Assembly (NCBI GenBank): GCA_964595705.1
Contig: CAZQSC010000003.1
Coordinates: forward strand, 1 to 41,693
Reading direction: 5' to 3'
DNA: 41,693 nt
DNA from: an uncultured bacterium
GTDB lineage: Bacteria > Latescibacterota > MVCY01
Shown: piece by piece, positions 1-14,860 of the stretch
Layout: every line of letters begins with the position of its first letter
Numbering within the stretch: the stretch's first letter is position 1
Translations under genes and position numbers: made by a program
The notes under the pieces: model-generated
Told to the model about the DNA's origin: nothing
Seen by the model: the letters and a program-made list of their open reading frames with translations, nothing else
Database searches by the model: none

Positions 1-153
1 GAGAGGCTCGACTGCGCTTGGCAGTTGATCTACGACCGCCTGAAAAGACTGGGGCGGCTGGAGGTGTTGGAGAGGGTAAGAGAACCCAAGGACTGGTCCC
101 AGGCAAGAGACGGAGGTCCAAGAAAAGTGGTAAGAGAGGATGTTGTCTTATGA
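1..153 (+). CDS. metV: MetV (MTHFR small Fe-S/Zn subunit), 3' end only; 5' part lies outside the window
   Basis: Frame +1 reads ERLDCAWQLIYDRLKRLGRLEVLERVREPKDWSQARDGGPRKVVREDVVL*, the typical MetV C-terminus (CAWxxIYxRL...PKDW...GGPR). Its TGA (151-153) overlaps the metF ATG (ATGA). Not in the ORF track. Confidence 0.85.
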   Translation, partial: ERLDCAWQLIYDRLKRLGRLEVLERVREPKDWSQARDGGPRKVVREDVVL

Positions 154-1106
154 ACCAGGAGAAGAGTTTCAAAGCAGGCAGTAGGCTGGAGAAACTCCTC
201 CTCTCCGGTCATTTTGTGGTTACCGCCGAGTTGGGGCCGCCTAAAAGCGCCGACCTGGAGCTGGTGAACCGCAAGATCGAGTACCTGAAGAACTACGTTG
301 ATGCCGCGAATATCACCGACAACCAGACGGCCATAGCCCGACTCTCCAGCATCGCCACCGGCACCATCCTCTGCCAGAAGGGCCTGGAGCCAGTGATTCA
401 GATGACCTGCCGGGACAGAAATCGCATCGCCATCCAGAGCGATATCCTGGGCGCCTACGCCTTAGGCATAAAGAATATCCTCTGCCTCACCGGCGACCAC
501 CAACGCCTCGGCAACCACCCTGCGGCCAAGGGAGTCTTCGATTTAGATTCGATTCAGCTTATCCAGATGCTGAAGGTGATGCGAGATGAGAAGAGATTTC
601 TCTGCGGGGAGGAGATAAGGAACTCTCCTAAGGCACCGGTGGTTGAACCTCGGATGTTCATCGGCGCAGCCGCCAACCCCTTCGGCGACCCCTTCGAGTT
701 CAGAGTAGTCCGACTGGCAAAGAAGATAGCCGCCGGCGCCGATTTCATCCAGACGCAATGCATCTACGATATGAAACGCTTCCGCCAGTGGATGCAACAG
801 GTACGAGACAGGGGATTGCACCAGAAGGCATACATCTTAGCTGGATTAACCCCCTTAAGATCGGTGAGAATGGCGCAGTATATGAAGGACAGCGTAGCTG
901 GCGTAACCGTGCCCGATGAGATTATTCAGAGGATGGCCCAGGCAAAAGACCCCGCCGAAGAGGGGGTGAAGATCTGTGTGGAACAAATAGAAGAACTTAA
1001 ACAGATAGAAGGCATTGCTGGCATCCACCTGATGGCGGTGGCCTGGGAGAAGATAGTACCTGTGATTGTCGAGCGGGCAGGACTGCTGCCGCGACCGAGC
1101 GTGTAA
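150..1106 (+). CDS. metF: Methylenetetrahydrofolate reductase, catalytic subunit
   Basis: TAELGPPK, NITDNQTA, QMTCRDRNRIAIQSD, LCLTGDH, GADFIQTQ motifs. Start placed at ATG 150 (coupled to metV), not at TTG 18. Confidence 0.95.
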   Translation: MNQEKSFKAGSRLEKLLLSGHFVVTAELGPPKSADLELVNRKIEYLKNYVDAANITDNQTAIARLSSIATGTILCQKGLEPVIQMTCRDRNRIAIQSDILGAYALGIKNILCLTGDHQRLGNHPAAKGVFDLDSIQLIQMLKVMRDEKRFLCGEEIRNSPKAPVVEPRMFIGAAANPFGDPFEFRVVRLAKKIAAGADFIQTQCIYDMKRFRQWMQQVRDRGLHQKAYILAGLTPLRSVRMAQYMKDSVAGVTVPDEIIQRMAQAKDPAEEGVKICVEQIEELKQIEGIAGIHLMAVAWEKIVPVIVERAGLLPRPSV

Positions 1107-1124
1107 CGAAGCTAAGTTTCGAGA

Positions 1125-1163
1125 AATAGCAACCTCCCGCAGTTTTCGAATCTCCAGGAGGTT
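1125..1163. repeat. Degenerate copy of the RAYT-associated REP palindrome
   Basis: aatagcaacctcccgcag-ttttcgaat-ctccaggaggtt; the first 18 nt are identical to the copies at 1656 and 2300, and the right arm has mismatches. Confidence 0.85.
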
Positions 1164-1195
1164 ACGGAGGTTAAATTCATCCAGGAGGCGACTAA

Positions 1196-1660
1196 ATGGA
1201 GACCATTGTCCTAAACAAGCTTGACCCCAACTTCAAGTATGAGATTGCAGCCCAACCGGGGGCAGAGGGCTTCAAGCTCTGTTTCTCCTGCGGCACCTGT
1301 ACCGCCACCTGCCCGGTAGCCGAAATAGACGAAGATTACAATCCCCGACGGATAATCCGCCAGGCATTGTTAGGAATGCGCCAGCAGGTGCTCTCCTCTC
1401 GCTCAATCTGGCTATGCGCCCAGTGTTTTGCCTGCTCTGTGCGCTGCCCCCAGGGAGTGAACTTCCGAGACATAATAGGTGTGCTGCGGCAAATGGCTGT
1501 GAAAGAAGGCTATATGCCCCCGGAAACTGTGAAAGATATAGAAGGAATAGATGTCCTCTCCCAGAGAATACGCCACGAGTTGATCCGCTATTACTTTGAA
1601 CAAAGAGAGAAATTTGAGCAGCTGAAAGAGATCATAGAAGATGAGCTGGGGATAAAATAG
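1196..1660 (+). CDS. hdrC: Heterodisulfide reductase subunit C-like 2x[4Fe-4S] protein
   Basis: CFSCGTCTATCP and IWLCAQCFACSVRCPQGV motifs, NPRRIIRQALLG; AGGAGG RBS upstream. Confidence 0.85.
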   Translation: METIVLNKLDPNFKYEIAAQPGAEGFKLCFSCGTCTATCPVAEIDEDYNPRRIIRQALLGMRQQVLSSRSIWLCAQCFACSVRCPQGVNFRDIIGVLRQMAVKEGYMPPETVKDIEGIDVLSQRIRHELIRYYFEQREKFEQLKEIIEDELGIK

Positions 1661-1696
1661 CAACCTCCCGCAGGTTCAGAACCTGCGGGAGGTTCT
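1656..1696. repeat. REP palindrome, left flank of the RAYT
   Basis: aatagc followed by the perfect inverted repeat aacctcccgcaggtt(cag)aacctgcgggaggtt; 41 bp identical to 2300-2340. Confidence 0.93.
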
Positions 1697-1725
1697 GGAG
1701 GTCTTAGAAGGAAACAAACAAGGAA

Positions 1726-2304
1726 ATGCCGTATCGCCAAGATATCTTTGTACCTGGTAATTATTACCACATTTACAACCGTGGTGCCAATCGCGAGAAT
1801 ATTTTCTTTTCAAAAGAGAATTTCCTCCATTGCCTTAGGCTCCTGGGGAAATATACGAAGTCTTACCTCGTGACGGTCATAGCTTACTGTCTAATGCCGA
1901 ATCATTATCACCTGGTGCTGCGGCAGGATGGTGAGGTTAGTCTCTCCAAGTTTACCAACGTTGTTTTCAACGCATACGTGCAAGCGGTGAACAAGCAACT
2001 CAGACGCAAAGGGACTCTTTTCCAGGGAGGTTTTAAGCATGTGCATGTAGACAGGGATGAGTATGTCCTGCATCTTTGTCGTTATGTCCATCTAAATCCT
2101 GTGGAAGCTGGTATCGTTTCTAGACCAGAAGAATGGGTTTTTTCAAATTACCAGGACTGGATAGGTATGCGGGAAGGGAAGTTAAAGGATGCAGAGTTCA
2201 TTCATTCGTACTTCGCGCAACCTGAAGATTATCAGAAGTTCGTGATGGAATATGAGGTAGAAAGGGAATTGGAGGAGAAGCTTTCTCGGTACTTGTTGGA
2301 ATAG
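1726..2304 (+). mobile_element. REP-associated tyrosine transposase (RAYT, Y1 HUH family)
   Basis: YYHIYNRG N-terminus, AYCLMPNHYHL (HUH), YVHLNPVEAG (catalytic Tyr plus NP), EWVFSNY; flanked by REP palindromes. Confidence 0.92.
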
Positions 2305-2340
2305 CAACCTCCCGCAGGTTCAGAACCTGCGGGAGGTTCT
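2300..2340. repeat. REP palindrome, right flank of the RAYT
   Basis: Identical 41-bp direct copy of 1656-1696. Confidence 0.93.
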
Positions 2341-2348
2341 AGACGCTT

Positions 2349-2472
2349 ATCCCCTCCCCTGGGGGGAGGGGATAAAGGGGAGGGGCGAAAAAGTCTTTGA
2401 AATATCGAGACTTTCACCCTCACCCTTTCCCTCTCCTTCAAGGGAGAGGGAATACTCTGGATTTTTTACGAG
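2349..2472. repeat. Dispersed REP-doublet/MITE-like element, copy 1 (one end missing)
   Basis: Two G/C hairpins (cccctcccct..aggggat; ccctctcctt..aagggagaggg) around the spacer aaaagtctttgaaatatcgagactttc; near-identical reverse complement at about 30390-30547. Confidence 0.88.
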
Positions 2473-2518
2473 AGGACCATTCAGTGTTTTCTGATTTGGA
2501 ATAAGGACACAAGAAGTT

Positions 2519-5500
2519 ATGAAAAACGGAAAGAAAAAGACGGGCGCTGTTTTAGTGATCGGCGGTGGTATAGGTGGCATCCAGGCCTCACTGGATCTGG
2601 CTGAGTCGGGTTTTAAGGTCTATCTTTTAGAGAAATCCCCGGCTATTGGGGGGACAATGGCAATGCTGGACAAGACCTTCCCCACCAATGACTGCTCGAT
2701 GTGCATCCTGGCCCCCAAGCTGGTTGAGTGCGGACGGCACCTGAACATCGAGGTCATCACCTGTGCCGAGCTGTTGGCAGTAGAGGGAGAAGCAGGCAGG
2801 TTCCGGGTTAAAATCAGAAAGCAGCCCCGCTATGTGGACACCCAGAAATGCACCGGCTGTGCCGAGTGTGCCGAAGTCTGTCCGGTGGAGGTGCCCAGCG
2901 AATTCGACCAGGGCCTGGCCAACAGAAAGGCCATCTTCAGACCCTTTCCTCAGGCATTTCCCAATGTCTTCGCCGTCGACAAAAAAGAGCGTCCTCCCTG
3001 CGTTCTTGCCTGCCCGGCAGGGACGAATGTCCAGGGCTATCTGGCTCTGGTCGCCCAGGGAAAATACCAGGAGGCTCTGGCCTTAATCAGGGAAAACATT
3101 CCTTTGCCCGGGGTGATCGGCCGTATCTGTCCTCACCCTTGCGAGGCCCAGTGCAAGAGAGGTTTTTTAGATGAACCACTCTCCATCTGTGCCCTGAAAC
3201 GCTTTGTCGCCGACTTCGTCGAAGAAGAACCGCCGCTGCCCGAAATAGAGCCGAAAGAGGAGAAAGTTGCCATTGTCGGTTCCGGCCCGGCGGGACTGTC
3301 AGCCGCCTACTACCTTGCCCTTCAAGGCTACCAGATTACTGTTTTCGAGGCCTTGCCCCAGGCAGGAGGGATGCTCTATTTCGGCATACCTGAGTACAGA
3401 CTGCCCAAAACCGTGCTCCAGAGGGAGATCGATTATATTCGCCGCCTGGGAGTGGAGATTAAAACCAACACACCCATAGGAAAGGATCTGGACATCGAAG
3501 ATCTCTTTGCTCAAGACTACAGGGCGGTTTTTGTTGCCACGGGGGCTCACCAGAGCCGGAAGTTAGGGGTGCCCGGCGAGGAGTCCGAGGGTGTGGTCCA
3601 TGGGGTCGACTTCCTGAGAGAGCTAAACCTCGGCAGGAGAGTGCAGATAGGAAAACGGGTGGCGGTGATAGGAGGTGGAGATGTAGCCATAGATGCAGCC
3701 AGGTCTGCACTCAGAGTGGGAGCCGAAGAGGTCCTTATCCTCTACCGACGCTCAAGGGAAGAGATGCCCGCCAGCCGAGAGGAGATCGAGGCAGCAGAGA
3801 CCGAGGGGGTGAAGATCCAATATCTGGTTGCCCCGGTAGAGGTGCTGGCCAGCGGAGGAAAGGTGAGCGGCATACGCTTGGTCCGGATGAGATTGGGCGA
3901 ACCAGACTCTTCCGGCAGAAGAAGGCCTGTACCCATCGAAGGCTCTCAGTTCCAGATAGAAGTGGACACGGTGATCCCAGCTATCGGACAGATGCCCGAC
4001 CTCTCGTTGTTGAAAGAAAGCGGTGTGGAGATAAGCCGTTGGGGCACCATCGTAGCCGATCCCCTCACCTTTGCCACCAGCCGTGGGGGCCTGTTTGCTG
4101 GTGGTGACAATGTCACCGGGCCAGCCACCGCCGTGGAGGCCATCGCAGCCGGAAAAGAGGCTGCTGTGTCCATCGACAGATACCTTCGGGGCGAAGACCT
4201 CAAGGAGGGCAGAGAGAAAAGAACATCAAGGCCGCTCGATCTCTCCGACCTTCCCCTGGGCCAGCCCAAGAGGCCCCGGGTGAAAATGCCCACTATCTGT
4301 TTAGAGGAGAGAAGAAAGAGCTTCAAAGAGGTGGAACTGGGCCTGTCGGAGGAGGCTGCAGTGACCGAAGCCCAACGGTGCCTCTCCTGCGGCATCTGCT
4401 CAGAATGCCTCCAATGTCTCAGGGTCTGTAAGGCAGAGGCCATCCTGCACAATATGGTCCCAGAGGAGATGGAACTGGAGGTGGGCTCGGTTCTTCTGGC
4501 CCCTGGGTTTGACGAATACGATCCTCTACCCGACGGGAAATATGGCTACGGTAGATTCCCCAATGTGGTGACCAGTATCCAGTTTGAGCGCATCCTCAGC
4601 GCCTCGGGGCCTTATCAGGGGCATGTGCAGAGACCCTCGGATGGTGCATCTCCCTCAAAAATAGCCTTTATCCAGTGCGTCGGCTCTCGTGACCGCAGCT
4701 GTGGAAACGAATACTGCTCCTCAGTCTGCTGTATGTACGCCATAAAGGAGGCAATTGTAGCCAAAGAGCACGCAAAAGATGTCGAAAGTGCTATTTTCTT
4801 TATGGACTTGCGGGCCTATGGAAAGGACTTCGACAAATACTACCAACGGGCCCAGGATGAATACGGCATCAGGTTTATCAGAGCCAGGGCAGCCGAGGTA
4901 AAACAGGCGGATGGGAATGGAAATTTATTCGTTGAATATGAATCAGAGGATGGCAAAAGGAGATCGGAACAGTTTGACCTGGTGGTCTTATCTGTAGGAT
5001 TTGAACCCCCTGGCGATTTAGGGTCTCTGGCGGAGAAACTGGGCATCAGATTGAACGAGTATGGTTTTTGCAAAACACAGGAATTTAAGCCACTGGAGAG
5101 CTCACGGCCTGGAATATTTGTCTGCGGAGCTGCCAGCGGTCCCAAAGATATCCCGGAGACAGTAACCGGGGCCAGTGGCGCAGCCGCAGAAGTTGCTGCC
5201 CTCCTGGAATCTGCCCGGGGAACCCTGACAGTCGAAAAAACCTATCCCCCTGAGATAGATATCAGGGGAGAGCCGCCCAGAATAGGCGTCTTTATCTGTC
5301 ACTGTGGCATAAATATCGGTGGGGTGGTAAATGTCCCCGAGGTGGTCGAATATGCCCGCGGTCTTCCCTATGTAGCCTACGCCGAAGATAATCTTTACAC
5401 CTGTTCTCAAGACACCCAGGAGAGGATAAAGGAGAAAATAGGGGAACACCGCCTGAACCGGGTAGTGGTGGCCTCCTGTTCTCCTCGGACGCACGAGCCG

Positions 5501-6967
5501 CTTTTCCAGGAGACAATGAGAGAAGCAGGCCTTAACCCCTATCTGTTTGAGATGGCCAACATCAGAGACCAGTGCTCGTGGGTGCATATGGAGGAGCCTG
5601 GAGAGGCTACCCAGAAGGCTAAGGACTTGGTAAGAATGGCAATACACAAAGCTTTCCTGCTTCAGCCTCTGGAAGAGATGAAGCTGGCAGTGAACAGGAA
5701 CGCATTAGTCATAGGTGCCGGGGTAGCAGGGATGACCGCCGCTCTGGCTCTGAGCCGTCAGGGATTCCCTGTCTTCCTGATCGAAAGACAGAACCAGCCT
5801 GGCGGAAACTTCAGGAATATACATTTTAGCTTAAATGGCCAAGATCCAAGGGCATTCTTAAATTGCCTGATAGAAAAAGTGAAGTCAGATAAGAAGATAA
5901 GACTTTACACAAACGCCGAGATAGAACAGATAGAGGGATATGTAGGCAACTTTAAGACCACGATCACCGTGGAAGACAGAGTGGGAGCAGAACCTGAGAG
6001 TGTGGAATTGGAACACGGGGTGATTATTGTGGCCACCGGGGCCACAGAATACAAGCCGTCCGAGTATCTCTACGGTCAAGACCCGAGAGTGTTAACTCAG
6101 CTTCAGCTGGAAAGCCTGTTAGGAGAGAGGAGAGAGGAAAGAAAGACCCTTCTCTCTCGTCTTTCTCCCACAGTGGTAATGATTCAGTGCGTGGGGTCAA
6201 GGGACCAGCAGAGGCCTTACTGCAGCAGGGTATGCTGCACTCAGGCAGTCAAAAATGCTTTGAAAATAAAGGGGAAGAATCCCGACGCAAACATCTACAT
6301 TCTCTATCGAGACATAAGAACCTACGGCTTCAGGGAGGAGTACTACCGGAAGGCAAGGGAACAGGGGGTGATATTCATCCGCTACGACGAGATGGAGAAA
6401 CCGAAGGTAGAGGAGACAGATGGGCACCTGAGCGTTTTGGTTAAAGACCCGGTGTTAGGGGAGACACTTCGCATAGATACAGACCTTCTGGTGCTCAGCT
6501 CGGCTATGGTGCCGCCTGCTGGAAACAGAGATCTGGCGCAGATGCTTAAGGTTCCCTTAAATGACGATGAGTTCTTCCTTGAGGCCCATGTGAAACTTCG
6601 TCCGGTGGATTTTGCCACTGACGGGATATTTGTATGTGGACTCGCCCATGCCCCCAAGTCGGTTGAGGAGACCATCGCCCAGGCCAGTGCCGCTGCCTCC
6701 AGGGCAGCCACCATTCTGTCTAAGAGCTTCATCAAGGTGGAGGGCAAGGTGGCCTCTGTGCGGGAGAGCAGATGCACTGGCTGCGGGATGTGCGAGGCGG
6801 TCTGCCCCTACAATGCAGTGAAAGTAGATCCAGAGAGGGCAGTGGCGGCCGTCAACGAGGCTTTGTGTAAGGGCTGTGGTGCCTGCTCAGCCACCTGCAG
6901 GTCCGGGGCCATAGACATCCGGGGATTCACCGACAACCAGATACTGGCAGCGGTGGAGGCCCTCTAA
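2519..6967 (+). CDS. hdrA: HdrL-type large flavoprotein: two HdrA-like modules plus an inserted GltD/NfnB-like NAD(P)H module and multiple Fe-S clusters
   Basis: GGGIGG...LDKTFPTNDCSMC HdrA start; PPCVLACP...GRICPHPCEAQC, GSGPAG, GGGDVA, YRRSREEMPA GltD-like insert; IQCVGSR...CSxVCC twice; RIGVFICHCGINI; C-terminal 2x CxxCxxCxxxC. Confidence 0.92.
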   Translation: MKNGKKKTGAVLVIGGGIGGIQASLDLAESGFKVYLLEKSPAIGGTMAMLDKTFPTNDCSMCILAPKLVECGRHLNIEVITCAELLAVEGEAGRFRVKIRKQPRYVDTQKCTGCAECAEVCPVEVPSEFDQGLANRKAIFRPFPQAFPNVFAVDKKERPPCVLACPAGTNVQGYLALVAQGKYQEALALIRENIPLPGVIGRICPHPCEAQCKRGFLDEPLSICALKRFVADFVEEEPPLPEIEPKEEKVAIVGSGPAGLSAAYYLALQGYQITVFEALPQAGGMLYFGIPEYRLPKTVLQREIDYIRRLGVEIKTNTPIGKDLDIEDLFAQDYRAVFVATGAHQSRKLGVPGEESEGVVHGVDFLRELNLGRRVQIGKRVAVIGGGDVAIDAARSALRVGAEEVLILYRRSREEMPASREEIEAAETEGVKIQYLVAPVEVLASGGKVSGIRLVRMRLGEPDSSGRRRPVPIEGSQFQIEVDTVIPAIGQMPDLSLLKESGVEISRWGTIVADPLTFATSRGGLFAGGDNVTGPATAVEAIAAGKEAAVSIDRYLRGEDLKEGREKRTSRPLDLSDLPLGQPKRPRVKMPTICLEERRKSFKEVELGLSEEAAVTEAQRCLSCGICSECLQCLRVCKAEAILHNMVPEEMELEVGSVLLAPGFDEYDPLPDGKYGYGRFPNVVTSIQFERILSASGPYQGHVQRPSDGASPSKIAFIQCVGSRDRSCGNEYCSSVCCMYAIKEAIVAKEHAKDVESAIFFMDLRAYGKDFDKYYQRAQDEYGIRFIRARAAEVKQADGNGNLFVEYESEDGKRRSEQFDLVVLSVGFEPPGDLGSLAEKLGIRLNEYGFCKTQEFKPLESSRPGIFVCGAASGPKDIPETVTGASGAAAEVAALLESARGTLTVEKTYPPEIDIRGEPPRIGVFICHCGINIGGVVNVPEVVEYARGLPYVAYAEDNLYTCSQDTQERIKEKIGEHRLNRVVVASCSPRTHEPLFQETMREAGLNPYLFEMANIRDQCSWVHMEEPGEATQKAKDLVRMAIHKAFLLQPLEEMKLAVNRNALVIGAGVAGMTAALALSRQGFPVFLIERQNQPGGNFRNIHFSLNGQDPRAFLNCLIEKVKSDKKIRLYTNAEIEQIEGYVGNFKTTITVEDRVGAEPESVELEHGVIIVATGATEYKPSEYLYGQDPRVLTQLQLESLLGERREERKTLLSRLSPTVVMIQCVGSRDQQRPYCSRVCCTQAVKNALKIKGKNPDANIYILYRDIRTYGFREEYYRKAREQGVIFIRYDEMEKPKVEETDGHLSVLVKDPVLGETLRIDTDLLVLSSAMVPPAGNRDLAQMLKVPLNDDEFFLEAHVKLRPVDFATDGIFVCGLAHAPKSVEETIAQASAAASRAATILSKSFIKVEGKVASVRESRCTGCGMCEAVCPYNAVKVDPERAVAAVNEALCKGCGACSATCRSGAIDIRGFTDNQILAAVEAL

Positions 6968-7024
6968 AAGCCAAAAAGTCTGTCCATTCAATGCCTCAGT
7001 AGATTATTACCAACAATAGGGAGA

Positions 7025-7555
7025 ATGGATCAACATATGAACAGGAAGAAACCCATCAGTGGTGGAGACCAATCTCTGGGTCGGCAGTGGCAGCCCAAGA
7101 TAGTTGCTTTCCTGTGCCACTGGTGTAGCTATGCCGGGGCAGACTTGGCCGGGATAAGCAGAATCCAGTATCCGCCCAACATCCGGGTGATAAGAGTCCC
7201 TTGCTCCAGCCGGGTAAACCCCCTGTACATCATAAAAGCCCTGCAACACGGCGCCGATGGAGTTTTAGTATCCGGCTGCCATCCCGGCGACTGCCACTAC
7301 GGCAGCGGGAACTACCTGGCCCGGCGGAAATTCGCCCTGCTGAAAAGATTTCTCGAATTCATTGGGATAGAACCGGAGAGAGTGCAATTTTCCTGGGTCT
7401 CAGCAGCAGAAGGGCAGAAGTTCGCCTCAGTGGTTAGGGAGGTTACCGAAGATGTGAGAAGGCTCGGCCCTGCACGGAGGTTGGTTAAGCACTTAAATGT
7501 AGCGAGCTTACAAACAGCTCTAGAGGAAAACAAGCAGATCAGCACAAAAGGCTGA
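7025..7555 (+). CDS. mvhD: MvhD/FlxD [2Fe-2S] subunit
   Basis: FLCHWCSYAGADLAG, RVPCSSRV, GCHPGDCHY, WVSAAEG. The start could be ATG 7037. Confidence 0.93.
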   Translation: MDQHMNRKKPISGGDQSLGRQWQPKIVAFLCHWCSYAGADLAGISRIQYPPNIRVIRVPCSSRVNPLYIIKALQHGADGVLVSGCHPGDCHYGSGNYLARRKFALLKRFLEFIGIEPERVQFSWVSAAEGQKFASVVREVTEDVRRLGPARRLVKHLNVASLQTALEENKQISTKG

Positions 7556-7558
7556 ATA

Positions 7559-8545
7559 ATGGAGCAAATTCAATTAAAACTGAGACAGACAGCAGGGCAG
7601 CTGCTCTCCGAAGGCAAGGTTGACCTGCTCATCGGTTACCAACAGGGCTCTCTGCCTCTGAGAACCACCCCCTGTTTTATCGCTCAGGAGCAGGAGGCTG
7701 CCGGGCTGGTGTGGAACTCATTTTGTACCAATAACCTTGCCGTCTATCTGCCTGCACTGTTCAGGCCTGACCCCCGGAGCAAAAAAAGGGAACCGAAGAG
7801 GGTGGGCATTGTGGTTAAAGGCTGCGACTGCCGCTCGGTGATTGGCCACCTGAAAGAGGGCCAGATGTCCCGAGAGAATCTGGTGATAATCGGGCTGCCC
7901 TGTCAGGGAGTGATCGATGAGAAAAAGATTGTGGCAGAGCTTAAGGGAAGGGAGATTATAAAGGCAGAGGAGCAGGGCGAACAGATCCTGGTGGTAGACG
8001 AAGAGGGGGAGAAAATAAGCTTGGCAAAAGGGGATTTCTTGAGAGATTCATGCCAGGTGTGTCAACATCCAGTTCCCCCTGTTTATGATCTCTTAATCGA
8101 GGGGGGGACAGCAAAGCAAGTAGTTCCGGATGAATATGCCGATGTAAAGGAAATGGAGGCCAGATCTATTGAGCAACGTTGGGAGTTTTTCCGGAGGCAG
8201 ATGGAGAAATGCATCAGGTGCTATGCTTGCCGGAACGCCTGTCCTCTCTGCTATTGTCCGGAGTGCTTTGCTGAGCAATCTCAGCCTCGCTGGGTGGGGA
8301 CAACAGACGACTCTTCTGACATTATGGCCTTTCATCTGGGCAGGATATTTCATACCGCCGGCCGCTGTGTTGACTGCGGTGCCTGTGAGGCTGCCTGCCC
8401 AATGGGCGTTGAACTGAGAAAACTCACCCGAAAACTGGCCAAAGATGTAGGGGAGCTATTCGGATACGAGGCCGGAGTTTCTGTTGAGGAACCTCCGCCA
8501 CTGGCAACCTACAGGTTGGATGACTACAACCAGTTCATTAAATAA
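7559..8545 (+). CDS. flxC: FlxC-like 4Fe-4S protein
   Basis: KGCDCRS, CIRCYACRNACPLCYCPEC, HTAGRCVDCGACEAACP; follows flxD/mvhD as in hdr-flxDCBA loci. Confidence 0.78.
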   Translation: MEQIQLKLRQTAGQLLSEGKVDLLIGYQQGSLPLRTTPCFIAQEQEAAGLVWNSFCTNNLAVYLPALFRPDPRSKKREPKRVGIVVKGCDCRSVIGHLKEGQMSRENLVIIGLPCQGVIDEKKIVAELKGREIIKAEEQGEQILVVDEEGEKISLAKGDFLRDSCQVCQHPVPPVYDLLIEGGTAKQVVPDEYADVKEMEARSIEQRWEFFRRQMEKCIRCYACRNACPLCYCPECFAEQSQPRWVGTTDDSSDIMAFHLGRIFHTAGRCVDCGACEAACPMGVELRKLTRKLAKDVGELFGYEAGVSVEEPPPLATYRLDDYNQFIK

Positions 8546-8810
8546 ACCCAGATAACGAGCAGAGTGGGAGAGGGAGAAACAAGAAACAAGGATAAAGGGT
8601 AAAGGATAAAGTAAAAAGTAGCGAGGGCAGAGGGGGAAGAAAAAGCCTTCCTACTTCCCACTTCTTCCTCTGGGAGGGCCCCCAGGGTGCGATATGAAGC
8701 CGTAGCTGGGTAACTCCCAAGAATAAAGACGTTGATTGCCAAGTTCAGCAAAACAATTACCCGAAGTTACCGCTTTGGCGATCCATAACGAAATTAGAGG
8801 CATTTTGAAG

Positions 8811-9824
8811 ATGGCCGAGAAGATCCTGAGCAAAGGCAGACAAAAAGAGTTTCTGAGTCGGCTGATCAAGAACTATCAGGTGTTCGCCCCGGTAGAAAAA
8901 GATGGGAATCTGCTCTTCTCTCAGATCCACTCCCCAGAGGAGCTGGTGCAGAAGTACCGCAACACCAAACGGCCACCCAAGGAGCTGTTCTTTCCTCACT
9001 CAGAGGCCCTTTTCCGCTTTCGAAAAGGGCAGGTGGCCGAAGAAAGCCCCGAGGGGGCTGAGAGGGTGATATTCGGCATGCGCCCCTGTGATGCCCAAAG
9101 CTTGGTCCTGCTGGATATGGTCTTCAACACCGACAAGTTCAAAGACCCCTATTTCATCAACAGGAGAGAGAAGACCACCATAATCTCCATTGCCTGTACC
9201 CACCCTCAAATCACCTGCTTCTGCACTTCCTTCGGCAGCACTCCTGCCTCAGAAGAGGGCTCAGATATTCTGCTTTTCGATCTGGATGGAACTTATCTGG
9301 TTAAGCCTATCACTCAAAAAGGCCAACAGCTTATAGAAAGCCTGAAGGGACTGCTGACCGACGCCCAGCAGTCCGACCTGAAGAAAAGAGACGAGCTGGT
9401 CAAAGTGGCGCTCTCTAAGATAAAATCGGAAGTTCCCATCGAAGGGCTGAAGGAGAAATTGGATGGTATGTTCGATTCTCCGATTTGGGAGAAAATGCAT
9501 CTTAAGTGCCTCGGGTGTGGCATCTGCACCTACCTCTGTCCCACCTGCCACTGCTTTGACATCGTTGACGAGGCGGTGGACTCAGAGGGCAAGAGAGTCA
9601 GAAATTGGGACTCCTGTATGTATCCTCAGTTCACACTGCAGGCATCAGGACTTAACCCGCGTCTATCAAACAAAGAGAGACTTAGACAGAGGGTAATGCA
9701 TAAATTCAACTACTCCGTGGCCAACTATGGACAGGCCTTCTGCGTGGGCTGCGGAAGGTGTGTCCGCAACTGTCCGGTAAATCTTGACATTCGGGAGATC
9801 ATAAAGCTGATAAGTGAGAAGTAA
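8811..9824 (+). CDS. flxB: FlxB-like (AsrA/HydB family) 4Fe-4S protein
   Basis: PPKELFFP, FGMRPCD, CLGCGICTYLCPTCHCFD, RNWDSC, CVGCGRCVRNCP. Start moved to ATG 8811. Confidence 0.8.
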   Translation: MAEKILSKGRQKEFLSRLIKNYQVFAPVEKDGNLLFSQIHSPEELVQKYRNTKRPPKELFFPHSEALFRFRKGQVAEESPEGAERVIFGMRPCDAQSLVLLDMVFNTDKFKDPYFINRREKTTIISIACTHPQITCFCTSFGSTPASEEGSDILLFDLDGTYLVKPITQKGQQLIESLKGLLTDAQQSDLKKRDELVKVALSKIKSEVPIEGLKEKLDGMFDSPIWEKMHLKCLGCGICTYLCPTCHCFDIVDEAVDSEGKRVRNWDSCMYPQFTLQASGLNPRLSNKERLRQRVMHKFNYSVANYGQAFCVGCGRCVRNCPVNLDIREIIKLISEK

Positions 9825-9845
9825 GAAGTGTGGAGAGATTCTTCA

Positions 9846-10691
9846 ATGACGAATCCATATCAACCCCATCTGGCCAGAATTACCAGAATAGTAGATGAGA
9901 ACGAGGCAAAGGACATAAAGACCTTTGAGGTGGTTTTTTGTGATACCCAGCAGGCGGAGAGTTTCAGCTTTGTCTGTGGCCAGTTTGCTCAGGTGTCCGT
10001 CTTTGGGGCTGGTGAAGCTCCATTTGGCATCGCCTCATCCCCCACCGACCGAGGATTTCTCCAGTTCACCGTCAAGCGCTATCCCACTGGGACAGTCACT
10101 ACTGCCTTGCACAACTGCCAGGAAGACGATCTGATCGGAGTCAGAGGCCCTTATGGCAATGGTTATCCTCTCCAGCTCTTAGAAGGCAGCAATGTGGTGA
10201 TCGTCGGGGGAGGGTTTGCCTTCACCACCCTCAGGTCTCTCATCAATTATATCCTCCATCCGGAGAACAGGGAGCGTTTCGGAGAGCTCACCGTGCTCTC
10301 TGCTGCTCGCAATTCCGGAGAGATGATATACAAGTACGAACTGAAGAGATGGGCAGAGAGGAACGACATCCGTCTGGTTCTTACCATTGACAAAGAGGAG
10401 GGGGGATGGGAGGGGGAAGTGGGATTTGCCGCCCCGGTGCTGAAACAGATAGCCCCTTCTTCAGACAACGCTGTGGCAGTGGTGTGTGGCCCGGCGATTA
10501 TGATAAAGACCTGTGTCTCTGTTTTACTTGAACTGGGATTTGCCCCCGACCGGATACTCACCTCCTTAGAGATGAAGATGAAATGCGGCATCGGTATGTG
10601 CGGCAGATGTAACATCGGGGACAAGTATGTCTGCCGAGACGGTCCGGTCTTCACTTACCAGCAACTTCAAGGAATGCCTAAGGAGTATTGA
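9846..10691 (+). CDS. flxA: FlxA-like (AsrB/HydG/PyrK family) FAD/NAD-binding [2Fe-2S] subunit
   Basis: GQFAQVS..GEAPF, VRGPYGNG, GGGFA, VCGP, KMKCGIGMCGRCNIG..VCRDGPVF. Start moved to ATG 9846 behind GGAGAG. Confidence 0.83.
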   Translation: MTNPYQPHLARITRIVDENEAKDIKTFEVVFCDTQQAESFSFVCGQFAQVSVFGAGEAPFGIASSPTDRGFLQFTVKRYPTGTVTTALHNCQEDDLIGVRGPYGNGYPLQLLEGSNVVIVGGGFAFTTLRSLINYILHPENRERFGELTVLSAARNSGEMIYKYELKRWAERNDIRLVLTIDKEEGGWEGEVGFAAPVLKQIAPSSDNAVAVVCGPAIMIKTCVSVLLELGFAPDRILTSLEMKMKCGIGMCGRCNIGDKYVCRDGPVFTYQQLQGMPKEY

Positions 10692-10835
10692 CCAAGCAGA
10701 TCGACAAAACAGACGGGTAACATAGAGCAGGGGACGATTCCCTTAGAGGCTTGCTGGAAGAACACTCTATACTAAAACTGGCGTAGCTTCGCCTCAAATC
10801 GACGAGGCCTTGAACCATCTCTACAGTCAAAAATC

Positions 10836-10897
10836 GTAGTGTAACCCCTTTATGGGGCGTAATCCTGCCTTTACGGGGGACAAGCCCCCTACACTAC
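10836..10897. repeat. GTAG-type inverted REP doublet (REPIN-like)
   Basis: Terminal inverted gtagtgta...tacactac, each end adjoining a small G/C hairpin (cccctttatgggg; gggggacaagccccc). Confidence 0.7.
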
Positions 10898-10935
10898 TTA
10901 ATGAAGACATGTAATAATACCAAGGATATAAAGGG

Positions 10936-11937
10936 ATGAAACAGATAATAGAGAAGGCCCAAAAGAATCCTTTAAAGATCGTCTTTCCTGAGTATGAAGA
11001 TGACCGCATACTGAAGGCTCTGTCTCGCTTAAGGGCAGAGAGAATAGCTTATCCTGTATTATTAGGCGATGAAGCGAAGATTATTTCCAGGGCTAAGCAG
11101 CTCGGGGTGGATTTAGAGGGTGTGGAGATAGTGAATCCCAACCGTGACCCCAATAAAGAGGAGTATGTGGAGCTTCTCTACCAGCGCTTGGTCAGAAAGG
11201 GGATAACAAGAGAACAAGCAAAAGAGCGCATTCTCGGTTCCCTATCTTACTATGCTGGGGCGATGGTAAAAACAGGAAGAGCCGCAGGGGCGGTCTCTGG
11301 CGCTACCCACCCCACCAGCGATACCATCAGGGGGGCCCTCTATACCATAGGTCCCCAGAAGGGAATCAAGACAATTTCCTCTTTTTCTGTTATGGAGCTC
11401 TCTGCCTGTCCTTACGCATACCGCGGATACTTAGTCTATGCCGACTGTGCTGTAGTGGTAGATCCCACATCAGAGCAGTTGGCCGAGATCGCTATTTGTA
11501 CGGCTAAATCGGCTGCCCAACTGTTGGGTTTGACTCCCCGAGTGGCGCTTTTGTCTTTCTCCACCTATGGCAGTGCTGCTCACCCATTGGTAGATAAGGT
11601 GAAAAAGGCCACCGAAATCGCCCAGCAGCGCTGTCCCGATATCTTAATTGACGGAGAACTTCAGGTAGACGCAGCTTTAGTGCCTGAAGTGGCCCAGAGA
11701 AAATGCCCCTCTTCACCTGTGGGAGGGAAAGCAAATATCTTGATCTTCCCTAACTTAAATACCGGCAACATCGCCTATAAGCTCACCCAGAGATTGGCTG
11801 GGGCCACTGCCTACGGACCCGTGCTTCAGGGACTGAAATATCCCTACAACGATCTTTCCCGAGGCTGTAGTGTGGAGGATATAATAGGCGTTGCCGCAGT
11901 AACCGTAGTTCAAGCTCAACAGAGGGAGAAGAGGTGA
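10936..11937 (+). CDS. pta: Phosphate acetyltransferase
   Basis: IVFPE, ADCAV, LSFSTYGS, DGELQVDAA, FPNLNTGNIAYK, NDLSRGCS. Confidence 0.96.
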   Translation: MKQIIEKAQKNPLKIVFPEYEDDRILKALSRLRAERIAYPVLLGDEAKIISRAKQLGVDLEGVEIVNPNRDPNKEEYVELLYQRLVRKGITREQAKERILGSLSYYAGAMVKTGRAAGAVSGATHPTSDTIRGALYTIGPQKGIKTISSFSVMELSACPYAYRGYLVYADCAVVVDPTSEQLAEIAICTAKSAAQLLGLTPRVALLSFSTYGSAAHPLVDKVKKATEIAQQRCPDILIDGELQVDAALVPEVAQRKCPSSPVGGKANILIFPNLNTGNIAYKLTQRLAGATAYGPVLQGLKYPYNDLSRGCSVEDIIGVAAVTVVQAQQREKR

Positions 11938-13145
11938 AGATACTGGTGATTAATTCCGGGAGCTCTTCTATAAAGTATCAACTGTTTTCGATGCCTCAGG
12001 AGAAGATATTAGCCAGAGGGTTATTGGAGAGAATAGGCCTGTCCTGTTCTGTGCTTCATCACAGCCGAGAAGAGAACTCGGAGGTGGAAATCTCAAAGCA
12101 GATAAAGAACCACCACCAGGGGTTAAAAATAGTGCTGGAGGTCCTCTCACATCCCCAGTACGGTGCTGTTGAAGATATAGATGAGATAAATGCTGTCGGC
12201 CACCGGGTAGTGCACGGTGGTGAGAAGTACACTGCCTCCTGTTTGGTAGACGAGGATCTGGTCTCCACGGTTAGAGAATTCTGTGAACTGGCCCCTCTCC
12301 ACAATCCCCCCAATCTGGCAGGGATAGAGGCCTGTCAGGAACTACTTCCCTCTGTCCCTCAGGTAGCGGTCTTTGACACCGCCTTTCATCAAACCATTGC
12401 TGACCATGCCTATCTTTATGCTATTCCTTATCTTTACTATGAAAAGTATCGGGTGAGGAGATACGGTTTTCACGGCACTTCCCATCGTTATGTAGCCTTA
12501 CGGGCAGCCCAGATATTGAGACAGCCCTTAACAGAGCTGAAGATAATCACTTGCCACCTGGGCAACGGCTGCAGTATCACCGCAGTGAAGGGGGGAAAAT
12601 CAGTGGAGACCTCTATGGGGTTTACCCCTTTGGAAGGTCTAGTGATGGGAACCCGCAGCGGCGATCTCGACCCCGCCGCAGCGTTTTACCTGATGGAGAA
12701 GCTGGGGCTGTCTGCCTCCCAGATGAAGCAGATACTGAATAAAAAGAGCGGTCTTCTGGGAGTCTCTGATGTAAGCAACGATATGCGAGATATTTGGAAG
12801 GCAAAGGAGGCTGGCAACCCCAAGGCAGATTTGAGCCTGAGGATCTTCTGGCACCGGTTGAAAAAGTACATCGGGGCTTACGTCGCAGTTATGAATGGCT
12901 TAGATGCTTTAGTCTTCACTGCTGGTATCGGAGAGAACGACTGTTACACCCGGCAGAAGGTCTGTGAGGGGATGGATTACCTGGGCATAGAGATAGACGA
13001 AGAGAAAAACGTTACCGTACAGGCAAAGGAGGCCACAATCTCCTCTGCCTCCTCCCGGGTAAAGGTCCTGGTGGTCCCCACCAACGAGGAGCTGATGATC
13101 GCCCGGGACACCTACCAGATAGCAAAAGGAAAAACTGAGGGATAA
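11934..13145 (+). CDS. ackA: Acetate kinase
   Basis: INSGSSSIK, GHRVVHGG, APLHNP, FDTAFH, YGFHGTSH, MGTRSGD, TNEE; GTGA overlap with pta. Confidence 0.97.
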   Translation: MKILVINSGSSSIKYQLFSMPQEKILARGLLERIGLSCSVLHHSREENSEVEISKQIKNHHQGLKIVLEVLSHPQYGAVEDIDEINAVGHRVVHGGEKYTASCLVDEDLVSTVREFCELAPLHNPPNLAGIEACQELLPSVPQVAVFDTAFHQTIADHAYLYAIPYLYYEKYRVRRYGFHGTSHRYVALRAAQILRQPLTELKIITCHLGNGCSITAVKGGKSVETSMGFTPLEGLVMGTRSGDLDPAAAFYLMEKLGLSASQMKQILNKKSGLLGVSDVSNDMRDIWKAKEAGNPKADLSLRIFWHRLKKYIGAYVAVMNGLDALVFTAGIGENDCYTRQKVCEGMDYLGIEIDEEKNVTVQAKEATISSASSRVKVLVVPTNEELMIARDTYQIAKGKTEG

Positions 13146-13852: not shown

Positions 13853-14860
13853 TCAGAGCCCGGAGAGCTTGTCTTTCACCCCCTGAGAGGCCACATATTC
13901 TAATTTGCCGTCTTTTTCAAAGAAGATCAGAGCCTCCACATTGTCCAGTCGTTCAACCAACTTCATCCCTTTTTCCGGACCCAGGACGAAGACCGCTGTA
14001 GCCAGGATGTCGGCATCTGTCGCCGTCCGTGTCCAGACGGTGGCGCTCACACACCTGCTGGCCGGGTAGCCAGTATGGGGATCCAGAATGTGATGGTACC
14101 TTTTCCCGTCCTTTATAAAGAACCTTTCATAATCGCCTGAAGTGGCTACGGCCGAAAGCCCCACTTTCCTTGCTCTAATGAGCTTTCCCCTCTCTCGGGG
14201 ATGGCGAATAGCGATCTGCCAGTCTCCGCCGTAGGGTTTTTTGCCCCACAGGCGAACATCTCCCCCGGCATCCACCAGGCCGCTTCTAACCCCTCTCTTC
14301 TTTAGGAACTCAACAGCACAATCCACCGCATAGCCTTTGGCTACCCCCCCTAAATCCAGCTTTATCTTTGGCTTCAGCAACCGAACTCTTCCCGCCTCAA
14401 GCTGAATATTCTGATAGCCAACCAGAGTAAGTGCAGAGACAAGCTGCCCAGGCAGAGGGACGCTGGGGTTAGGTGAGTCAAATCCCCATAACTCTTTTAC
14501 AGGACCGACGGTAATGTCAAAGGCACCGCCTGAGAGTTCAGAGAAGTATTGGGACCTTTTAAGTACCTGTTCCATATCTGGCGAAATGGAAACCCACCCT
14601 TTCCCTGCCGTCGAGTCGATAAGAGCAACCTCACTGGTAGAAGAATAGCTATCCATCATCCGGTCAATGCGCTCCATCTCCTCGAAGACCTCTCTGAGCA
14701 GATTCCGGGCAGTGGAACTGTCTTTAGCACAAAGCTTAACCGTGACCACTGTGTCCATCATAGGACGCACCGCCTCCCAGAGGTGGACAGGACGATAAAT
14801 CCTCCAGAAGGCAAAGGCAACAAGTAGTACAAGCAGCAGATAGGAGATAATCCTTTTCAT
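13853..14860 (-). CDS. apbE: FAD:protein FMN transferase
   Basis: MMDT, GAFDITVGP, DLGGVAKGYAVD, DAGGD, ATSGDYERF, YHHILDP, ADILATA; N-terminal membrane anchor. Confidence 0.93.
   Translation of the reverse strand: MKRIISYLLLVLLVAFAFWRIYRPVHLWEAVRPMMDTVVTVKLCAKDSSTARNLLREVFEEMERIDRMMDSYSSTSEVALIDSTAGKGWVSISPDMEQVLKRSQYFSELSGGAFDITVGPVKELWGFDSPNPSVPLPGQLVSALTLVGYQNIQLEAGRVRLLKPKIKLDLGGVAKGYAVDCAVEFLKKRGVRSGLVDAGGDVRLWGKKPYGGDWQIAIRHPRERGKLIRARKVGLSAVATSGDYERFFIKDGKRYHHILDPHTGYPASRCVSATVWTRTATDADILATAVFVLGPEKGMKLVERLDNVEALIFFEKDGKLEYVASQGVKDKLSGL

Follow-up and report, generated by a model that had tools for sequence, protein, structure and literature searches.

A long-open question in acetogen bioenergetics is how the very exergonic reduction of methylene-tetrahydrofolate (methylene-THF) is linked to the conservation of energy. 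The closest described system is the type IV, or Hdr-type, methylene-THF reductase, a class composed of MetVF, HdrCBA and MvhD (PMC8760232), whose representative in Moorella thermoacetica, HdrCBA-MvhD-MetVF, is described in PMC5861303, PMC8760232 and PMC9430772. For Moorella, the stoichiometry 2 NADH + methylene-THF + oxidised ferredoxin(?) -> 2 NAD+ + methyl-THF + reduced ferredoxin(?) has been proposed, with ferredoxin marked as questionable (PMC5861303), and the passages of these papers that treat the matter leave both the second electron acceptor and the role of HdrB unsettled (PMC5861303, PMC8760232, PMC9430772). Here we describe a gene cluster at the start of a 41,693-nucleotide stretch of DNA (the window) from an uncultured member of the Latescibacterota, in which metV, metF, an hdrC-like gene, a giant hdrA-type gene (hdrL), mvhD and three flx-like genes are found with no gene for HdrB. 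We lean towards the view that this cluster encodes an HdrB-less variant of the Hdr-type, Moorella-type reductase, in which electrons would pass from NAD(P)H through bifurcation at HdrL to HdrC and on to MetVF.

The window is contig C3 of a 2.6-Mb metagenome-assembled genome (MAG; G000) that comprises 321 contigs and is 91% complete with 4% contamination. Its first base is the first base of the contig, so that metV is cut by the contig edge. The genes of the putative complex are as follows.

1..153, plus strand: 3' end of metV, the last 50 codons at 1-150 and the stop at 151-153 (PF12225 match at 7-99)
150..1106, plus strand: metF, catalytic subunit of methylene-THF reductase, 318 aa (PF02219, E 2.7e-41; 93% identical to the ortholog in same-genus genome G002)
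1196..1660, plus strand: hdrC-like gene, 154 aa, with two [4Fe-4S] motifs (two CxxCxxCxxxCP; Fer4_8/Fer4_17; PDB HdrC chains, E 2.8e-23)
2519..6967, plus strand: hdrL, 1482 aa, an HdrA unit with a GltD/NfnB-like insert (~158-626) fused to a second HdrA copy (918-1482) (PDB 5odc_A and NfnB matches)
7025..7555, plus strand: mvhD/flxD, [2Fe-2S] adaptor, 176 aa (PF02662, E 2.1e-57)
7559..8545, plus strand: flxC-like Fe-S protein, 328 aa (Fer4 motifs, weak FrhB_FdhB_C match)
8736..9824, plus strand: flxB-like, sulfhydrogenase beta/AsrA-like, 362 aa (PF17179 (Fer4_22); NF040829, NF040833 and TIGR02910 all below their cut-offs)
9828..10691, plus strand: flxA-like, PyrK/NfnA/sulfhydrogenase-gamma-like FAD-NAD(P)H-[2Fe-2S] subunit, 287 aa (FAD_binding_6 + NAD_binding_1 + DHODB_Fe-S)

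By Pfam, NCBIfam and PDB sequence searches, the order on the plus strand is metV'-metF-hdrC-(REP/RAYT)-hdrL-mvhD-flxC-flxB-flxA-pta-ackA, where REP/RAYT is a repetitive extragenic palindrome (REP) element with its transposase. An earlier note on this DNA had listed these genes on one strand; all of them were recovered there, with the correction that metV is only a 50-codon stub at the contig edge. The stub is 88% identical to residues 170-219 of the complete, 219-aa MetV of G002, and its stop overlaps the metF start as TTATGA. A search for sequencing runs listed 8 DNA rows from 3 studies and none of RNA. Metagenome contigs from four runs that aligned to 1-7600 were short, low-depth pieces and did not extend metV. 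A contig of G000 carrying an HdrA-MvhD fusion and folD (C141) was considered as the missing upstream neighbour and ruled out, as fpg and further genes come after its folD and a search of G000 for the 5' part of metV found none. MetF with an adjoining MetV, a feature of type IV reductases, is present (PF02219; PF12225 on the stub; full metV in G002), as are their MvhD (PF02662) and HdrC (PDB matches) subunits.

The type IV subunit not found in the window genome is HdrB, with its two CCG domains and non-cubane clusters. A search of all of G000 with the CCG family PF02754 gave 0 matches, the control being positive in 12 of 14 reference genomes. We also built a hidden Markov model (HMM) from 27 HdrB open reading frames (ORFs) of loci fetched for comparison; it recovered 7 further CCG proteins in those loci and gave 0 matches in the six-frame translation of G000, even at E<=10. 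CCG proteins were found in none of 6 genomes of the genus (completeness 57-91%) versus 22 of the 25 other sampled genomes of the phylum, and in neither of two carriers of the gene block from other phyla (G031, 4.7 Mb; G034, 2.4 Mb). The claim that the window holds no CCG-domain HdrB thus stands and extends to the genome and the genus, and for a MAG that is 91% complete these results strongly suggest that HdrB, including the disulfide-reducing HdrB of HdrABC in Hdr-Flox complexes, is absent from both. The earlier note had held that an hdrB upstream, or between hdrC and hdrL, in close relatives would speak against its reading. None turned up there: in G002, metV follows a 222-bp spacer and, before that, a divergent ORF fragment (97 aa, no Pfam match) at which the contig ends, and the hdrC-hdrL interval in the genus holds only a transposase (full-length in G003) or its remnant (G002).

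To place the cluster among other genomes, loci were collected by a scan with the HdrC alignment over one genome per species (541 relatives), and the best 80 loci were kept. Their ORFs were labelled by phmmer with the window proteins plus MetV (from G002), HdrB (G024) and FolD (G013). Four loci in which the HdrC ORF exceeds 260 aa (L081, L083, L086, L106) were left out of the classing, which covers 79 HdrC rows from the remaining 76 loci.

metF directly upstream of hdrC: 24 of 79 rows
metF nearby: 4 of 79 rows
hdrB directly downstream of hdrC: 20 of 79 rows
flxA directly upstream of hdrC, no metF or hdrB: 17 of 79 rows
other class: 14 of 79 rows

No match to the HdrB HMM was found in the fetched DNA of 27 of the 28 metF-linked loci, the exception being a 548-aa MvhD/HdrC/HdrB-like fusion in L054. 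At least 8.3 kb downstream of hdrC was available for 18 of the 28, and in 11 of these 18 metF-hdrC is followed by a full hdrL (>=1300 aa)-mvhD-flxC-flxB-flxA series (10 by script, L091 by inspection).

Full block, Planctomycetota/Pirellulales: L043, L048
Full block, Spirochaetaceae (Spirochaetota): L051
Full block, Chloroflexota/Anaerolineae: L061, L065, L077
Full block, Bacillota: L071, L091
Full block, Atribacterota: L080, and L098 by HdrC kinship
Full block, Calditrichales (Calditrichota): L115

The metVF-hdrC-hdrL-mvhD-flxCBA block is therefore found in six named phyla besides Latescibacteria and is not peculiar to this genome; the closest locus (L036) is the contig of G002, itself a Candidatus Latescibacteria genome. 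Spacing is tight, with a median metF-hdrC gap of 23 nt, gaps of <=100 nt in 23 of 27 loci and several 4-nt overlaps, and in other phyla hdrC usually abuts hdrL. Upstream of metV, many loci carry a split HdrA (~400 + 520 aa) or an HdrA-MvhD fusion, plus folD. In four loci of Planctomycetota and other groups (L040, L043, L048, L066), metV comes after folD, which itself follows either a separate MvhD or an HdrA-like ORF; only for L043 has this ORF been shown to be an HdrA-MvhD fusion. Other metF-linked loci are built differently. In L042, L063, L068 and L082, hdrC is followed by a shorter GltD-like gene, a ~630-680-aa ORF that we take as NuoF-like by its likeness to a scanned ORF of L079, and an HdrA of ~1000-1100 aa; after this HdrA come mvhD-flxCBA in L063, L068 and L082, and only mvhD in L042. 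Still other arrangements occur in L052, L054 and L066, which have enough flanking sequence.

A sister block, hdrC-hdrB-hdrL(~1480-1650 aa)-mvhD-flxC-flxB-flxA without metVF, occurs in three Thermodesulfobacteriota/Syntrophaceae loci (L099, L103, L105) and one from Thermoplasmatales (L104). A Zixiibacteriota locus (L094) starts in the same way, and its fetched DNA ends at flxB. Thus, the same hdrL-mvhD-flxCBA module is accompanied either by metVF-hdrC without HdrB or by hdrC-hdrB without metVF. The proposal in the earlier note that MetVF takes the place of HdrB gains comparative support from this alternation. The Moorella order with HdrB is also represented within the phylum, by hdrC-hdrB-hdrL-mvhD-metV-metF in G024. 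We also considered MetV as a structural stand-in for HdrB and dropped the idea, as hhalign of the MetV profile against that of HdrB gave a probability of 0.3%. Foldseek gave no PDB match at E<=0.001 for a model of MetV (pLDDT 83.9), with HdrB chains absent from the rows listed, and phmmer of MetV against PDB sequences returned 0 matches.

The HdrC-like protein itself has HdrC chains as its best PDB matches, a TIGR03290 match below that family's cut-off and eight invariant cysteines, and its homologues (192 at E<=1e-10, mostly 150-165 aa) come from many phyla. In a tree of 83 HdrC rows built with IQ-TREE, 17 of the 21 HdrB-adjacent HdrCs and one unclassed row form one clade (support 96/94), the remaining 4, that of G024 among them, form a long-branch clade, and all 61 HdrB-less rows group together at 94/88, slightly below the threshold for starring. 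The window HdrC pairs with those of G001 and G002, then with that of G013 (99/91), then with two spirochaete metF-linked HdrCs. Given this tree and the wide spread of the block, we regard HdrB-lessness as a trait of an old, widely spread HdrC lineage and not as a recent loss in the genus. Furthermore, G013 keeps hdrC right after metF though no hdrL adjoins, which argues that HdrC is tied more closely to MetVF than to HdrL.

Four segments of HdrL align with the HdrA structure of M. thermolithotrophicus (5odc_A), and another module lies between the first two.

HdrL 10-156: matches HdrA 145-291
HdrL 158 to ~626: NfnB/GltD-like NAD(P)H-FAD insert
HdrL 627-808: matches HdrA 293-474
HdrL 918-1072: matches HdrA 2-156
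HdrL 1301-1480: matches HdrA 466-647

Residues 157-559 match the NfnB chains 4ylf_B (E 1e-108) and 5jca_L (E 2e-101). The first HdrA-like TrxR unit has no N-terminal domain, and the NAD(P)H/FAD module splits its inserted ferredoxin domain. N- and C-terminal ferredoxin domains are both present in the second unit, and because its TrxR-like stretch (~1072-1300) is some 80 residues shorter than that of HdrA, it probably has no inserted ferredoxin domain. Both units retain the Glu/Lys pair by which bifurcating HdrA flavins are recognised (E690/K743 and E1198/K1245). The same layout is published for the HdrA of M. thermoacetica, a 1487-aa protein with a GltD insert whose residues 922-1487 are HdrA-like without an inserted ferredoxin domain and whose pairs are E696/K750 and E1204/K1246 (PMC9430772). 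Compared with Moorella by this published layout, the window thus encodes an HdrA-type flavoprotein with a GltD insert and two TrxR-like domains. The Moorella protein is the reported site of NADH oxidation (PMC8760232), and the name HdrL comes from Desulfobacterium autotrophicum (PMC2702500).

The remaining genes supply Flx-type domain sets, namely FAD/NAD(P)H/[2Fe-2S] in FlxA, an AsrA/sulfhydrogenase-beta-like FlxB and an MvhD-like FlxD, with the NCBIfam matches below cut-offs; for the flxA-like protein these matches are to sulfhydrogenase gamma and AsrB, below the equivalog cut-offs. The features of the three flx-like genes are, we presume, those of Desulfovibrio FlxABC. The flxC-like protein, a possible ortholog of Desulfovibrio FlxC, shows the Fer4 motifs and the weak FrhB_FdhB_C match but no NCBIfam match, and its position is kept in the syntenic blocks.

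From these architectures we infer how the variant may assemble, that it would bifurcate electrons, which carriers it might use and in which direction it may run. In this proposal, MetF with its flavin and MetV with its Fe-S centre would reduce methylene-THF, and HdrC, with two [4Fe-4S] clusters, would serve as the wire that leads to HdrB in a canonical Hdr complex and would lead here to MetV and MetF. In HdrL, two HdrA units that both carry the bifurcating-flavin signature may form a pseudo-dimer within one chain, which would split electron pairs delivered by NAD(P)H through FlxA-FlxB-FlxC-MvhD, through the GltD/NfnB-like module inside HdrL, or through both. The high-potential electron would travel by HdrC, MetV and MetF to methylene-THF (E0' -200 mV; PMC5861303), and the low-potential electron would leave by the inserted ferredoxin domain of HdrL with its NfnB-like module, to ferredoxin and/or NADP+, the latter having been suggested as acceptor for a Chloroflexi cluster (PMC5736913). 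No disulfide would take part, and the reaction might reverse for methyl-group oxidation. The start-stop overlaps of metV with metF and of pta with ackA, and the placement of all parts on one strand, were counted in favour of a single complex.

A number of observations weigh against this proposal. MetVF enzymes purified alone use reduced ferredoxin (PMC8760232), and HdrCBA-MvhD of S. ovata did not co-purify with MetVF (PMC9430772), so the link between the two parts could be loose or purely genetic. The low-potential acceptor of the Moorella enzyme itself is not established in the relevant passages of PMC5861303, PMC8760232 and PMC9430772. An HdrB-less HdrC adjoins flxA in the 17 of 79 rows without metVF noted above (Cloacimonadota, Fermentibacterota and others), and this type of HdrC is therefore not specific to MetVF. 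CCG proteins do occur elsewhere in the genomes of 3 of the 5 other carriers checked. Within the genus, the REP/RAYT insertion stretches the hdrC-hdrL gap to 858 nt, so that a single transcript over this interval is unproven. In G004, a same-genus genome that is 80% complete, a restriction/helicase island takes the place of hdrL upstream of mvhD-flxCBA-pta-ackA, and searches of that genome gave neither an hdrL ortholog nor, at E<=1e-30, a metF. Finally, 17 longer homologues include no natural fusion of HdrC with MetF or MetV, which is weak evidence; the fusions among them are with MvhD, NarI-like and Pyr_redox domains. Complex prediction of MetV (from G002) and MetF, with alignments and with HdrC as partner, scored 0.00 in two runs made without controls and is neutral on binding.

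Many of these points would fit two enzymes that share one neighbourhood: a stand-alone type II MetVF fed by free reduced ferredoxin, and an independent soluble NADH/NADPH/ferredoxin oxidoreductase of Nfn- or Flx-like type, made of HdrC, HdrL, MvhD and FlxCBA, that supplies or balances the carriers, the link being regulatory. Besides the ferredoxin-dependent activity of MetVF alone (PMC8760232), the co-purification result from S. ovata (PMC9430772) and the flxA-linked rows, the retention of mvhD-flxCBA in G004, where metF and hdrL were not found, speaks for such a division, as do the NfnB-like module of HdrL and the NfnA/PyrK-like character of FlxA. We nevertheless consider it unlikely. Against it stand the position of hdrC shortly after metF (median 23 nt) in 27 loci of many phyla, and in G013 without an adjacent hdrL, as well as the alternation of MetVF and HdrB on the same hdrL-flx module, and a bifurcating HdrA with HdrC but no terminal acceptor module would offer the high-potential electron no destination. 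Pull-downs in S. ovata, moreover, did detect contacts of MetF and MetV with HdrA, HdrB and MvhD (PMC9430772).

The same complex could instead run in the oxidative direction during acetate or methyl-group oxidation, with methyl-THF oxidised uphill to NAD+, driven by co-oxidation of reduced ferredoxin or NADPH (confurcation), and with Pta-AckA activating acetate. The pta-ackA pair directly downstream, which stays there in 4 of the 5 other genus members, would suit this scheme; Hdr-type reductases have been discussed in the literature for syntrophic acetate oxidisers, and flavin-based bifurcation is reversible in principle (PMC5861303). Yet dsrA and [FeFe]-hydrogenase, as electron sinks, were not found in G000, and pta-ackA would serve acetate formation equally well; we rate this purely genomic reading as rather improbable. 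Most improbable of all is that HdrB was simply missed, being unassembled, binned out or upstream of the contig break, and that the enzyme is an ordinary Moorella-type HdrCBA-MvhD-MetVF complex. The fragmentation and 91% completeness of the MAG, the contig break inside metV and the hdrB-containing cluster of G024 in the same phylum give this idea some footing. Set against it are the 0 of 6 genus genomes with CCG proteins, the empty HMM search, the spacer and divergent ORF before metV in G002, the 27 of 28 metF-linked loci of other phyla without HdrB within up to 10 kb on each side, and the place of the window HdrC inside the HdrB-less set, far from the HdrC of G024.

A bolder form of the HdrB-less reading is that MetVF-HdrC-HdrL-MvhD-FlxABC constitutes a fifth type of methylene-THF reductase, one that is distinct, old and widely distributed and needs neither HdrB nor a disulfide, in which NADH oxidised via Flx would reduce methylene-THF through HdrC while the NfnB-like arm of HdrL reduces NADP+ and/or ferredoxin. 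We put this forward tentatively, as a possibility that falls short of probable. If true, HdrL would itself handle the second acceptor of Hdr-type reductases, either a pyridine nucleotide or ferredoxin, and HdrB of Moorella would be accessory. In mostly uncultured anaerobes of at least seven phyla, the Wood-Ljungdahl pathway would then conserve energy at its reductase step.

The HdrB-less variant is of interest to the broader discussion of the Hdr-type enzyme. A natural, conserved variant with an added NAD(P)H-dehydrogenase module narrows the question of the second acceptor and of the role of HdrB, predicts a direct hand-over of electrons from HdrC to MetVF with no need for a disulfide, and gives a defined set of subunits to express and assay, so that the roles of HdrB and HdrC and the second acceptor become testable. 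A survey of bifurcating enzymes required or assumed HdrABC for calling a bifurcating reductase (PMC6085437), and surveys that demand HdrABC would overlook the HdrB-less block. The block also bears on how the Wood-Ljungdahl energetics of uncultured anaerobes in sediments and digesters are modelled.

The HdrB-less HdrCs next to flxA represent another use of the same HdrC lineage. In Cloacimonadota, Fermentibacterota, Aegiribacteria and related MAGs (within L037-L067), the order is flxC-flxC-mvhD-hdrA(~1015 aa)-mvhD-flxCBA-hdrC, with neither hdrB nor metVF; examples are L044 (5903-7500) and L055 (6001-7218). The ORF that follows hdrC in these loci was considered as a divergent HdrB and ruled out, as the three scanned are FrhB/FdhB-like (L044) or of the sulphur-transport family PF04143 (L053, L055). 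Seven further ORFs scanned alongside (a GAF/HD regulator, HdrA-like halves, an HdrA-MvhD fusion and a NuoF-like protein among their types) contain no CCG domain. In G013 (L030), the mvhD-folD-metV-metF-hdrC cluster includes two minus-strand ORFs without a Pfam match, at 3980-4663 (227 aa, between metV and metF) and 6417-7481 (354 aa, between mvhD and folD), which could be real new subunits or spurious ORFs.

The elements of the insertion between hdrC and hdrL, and a related hairpin copy nearby, are as follows.

1131..1163, no strand assigned: degenerate REP-like hairpin copy, between metF and hdrC
1662..1694, no strand assigned: REP hairpin with a perfect 15-bp stem, left flank of the RAYT gene
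1726..2304, plus strand: RAYT-like IS200/Y1 transposase between hdrC and hdrL, 192 aa (PF01797)
2306..2338, no strand assigned: second REP hairpin copy, right flank of the RAYT gene

The hairpins at 1662-1694 and 2306-2338 are identical over 33 nt, and further copies lie in C3 and C26; the element thus has the make-up of REP/RAYT, in which a Y1 (IS200-like) transposase stands between inverted, palindromic copies of a REP found repeatedly in the genome. The RAYT is full-length in G003 and a remnant in G002; other phyla lack it between hdrC and hdrL. Many metagenome contigs with differing flanks align at the REP hairpins, and the breaks of contigs at metV, metF and hdrC in G000, G001 and G003 are probably due to the repeats. 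The island in G004 (contig C207, L129, 1-7104) brings a DNA methylase, a DUF1828 protein and a ResIII helicase upstream of mvhD-flxCBA-pta-ackA, an arrangement that could reflect a mobile-island insertion, a loss or a chimeric contig.

Downstream of flxA, the two genes of acetate metabolism follow on the same strand.

10936..11937, plus strand: pta, phosphotransacetylase (PF01515, E 2.8e-117)
11934..13145, plus strand: ackA, acetate kinase, whose start overlaps the end of pta (PF00871, E 2.8e-158)

The earlier note took the adjacent pta-ackA as a sign of acetate metabolism linked to the Wood-Ljungdahl pathway. The pathway itself is borne out by acsB and fhs in G000, alongside folD and Rnf-type subunits. 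The adjacency carries less: flxA is joined to pta in 4 of the 5 other genus members as well, but pta-ackA adjacency was seen in 0 of 80 other loci; it is a lineage feature that says nothing on direction. Many contigs of the genus carry a short repeat, other than the REP hairpin, that lies at 10817-10899 between flxA and pta in the window. Just 3' of the cluster lies an ApbE-family flavin transferase on the minus strand (13853-14860), and because 10 ORFs scanned at 13.8-41.6 kb are mostly housekeeping genes (ApbE, MetRS, transketolase, ArgRS, RecJ, an aconitase-family protein), we take the cluster to be chromosomal. Other methyl-branch genes of G000 also adjoin HdrA-like genes: a 684-aa HdrA-MvhD fusion lies directly upstream of folD (C141, L118, 241-3186) and a 430-aa HdrA-like flavoprotein directly downstream of fhs (C94, L119, 3360-6415). 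On a further contig (C12, L120, 4170-10756), a NuoD-like protein (Complex1_49kDa), a 623-aa GltD-like Fe-S flavoprotein and FlxB-like, FlxA-like and NuoH-like proteins stand in one row, which looks like a membrane-bound complex joined to a sulfide-dehydrogenase/Nfn-like module.

Full-text literature searches, which cover few subscription journals and do not extend to supplements, so that an earlier mention is possible, returned no description of an HdrB-less or Flx-linked MetVF cluster; the supplementary Hdr gene-cluster figures of PMC10553843 and PMC9012536 could show related arrangements. Among described systems, the M. thermoacetica enzyme shares MetF, MetV, MvhD, HdrC and the giant ~1480-aa HdrA with its GltD insert and Glu/Lys pairs in both TrxR-like domains. 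Unlike it, the window cluster shows no HdrB in cluster, genome or genus, is ordered metVF-hdrC-hdrL-mvhD instead of hdrCBA-mvhD-metVF, adds three Flx-like genes and contains a REP/RAYT element. HdrL of D. autotrophicum is likewise a large fusion of HdrA and glutamate-synthase type followed by mvhD (PMC2702500), and in anaerobic methanotrophic (ANME) archaea an NfnB-like insert also splits the inserted ferredoxin domain of HdrA, with fused HdrA units that are complementary in their domains (PMC9012536). Those loci, as far as these sources describe them, have dsr, fdh or hdrBC partners and not an HdrB-less metVF-hdrC with flxCBA. The NfnAB transhydrogenase resembles HdrL in its NfnB-like part and FlxA in its PyrK/NfnA domain set, whereas in the window the NfnB-like part is an insert in an HdrA fusion and not a free subunit.

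The Hdr-Flox complex of Desulfovibrio, FlxABCD-HdrABC, whose subunits Ramos et al. reportedly described in 2015, offers a further parallel: an MvhD-like FlxD, followed by a pair of Fe-S proteins and by a FAD/NAD(P)H/[2Fe-2S] protein of PyrK type, beside hdrA and hdrC. Likened by domain descriptions, the window cluster differs from it in having MetVF in place of HdrB, the subunit that reduces the DsrC disulfide, and in its double, GltD-containing HdrA of HdrL type. The idea in the earlier note of a new hybrid is therefore best narrowed. The HdrL architecture is that of the Moorella HdrA and the block is widespread; the novelty lies in the lost HdrB and the added Flx. Because HdrL has the architecture of the M. 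thermoacetica HdrA, we place the cluster as a variant of the type IV, Hdr-type reductase from which HdrB has been lost and to which Flx has been added.

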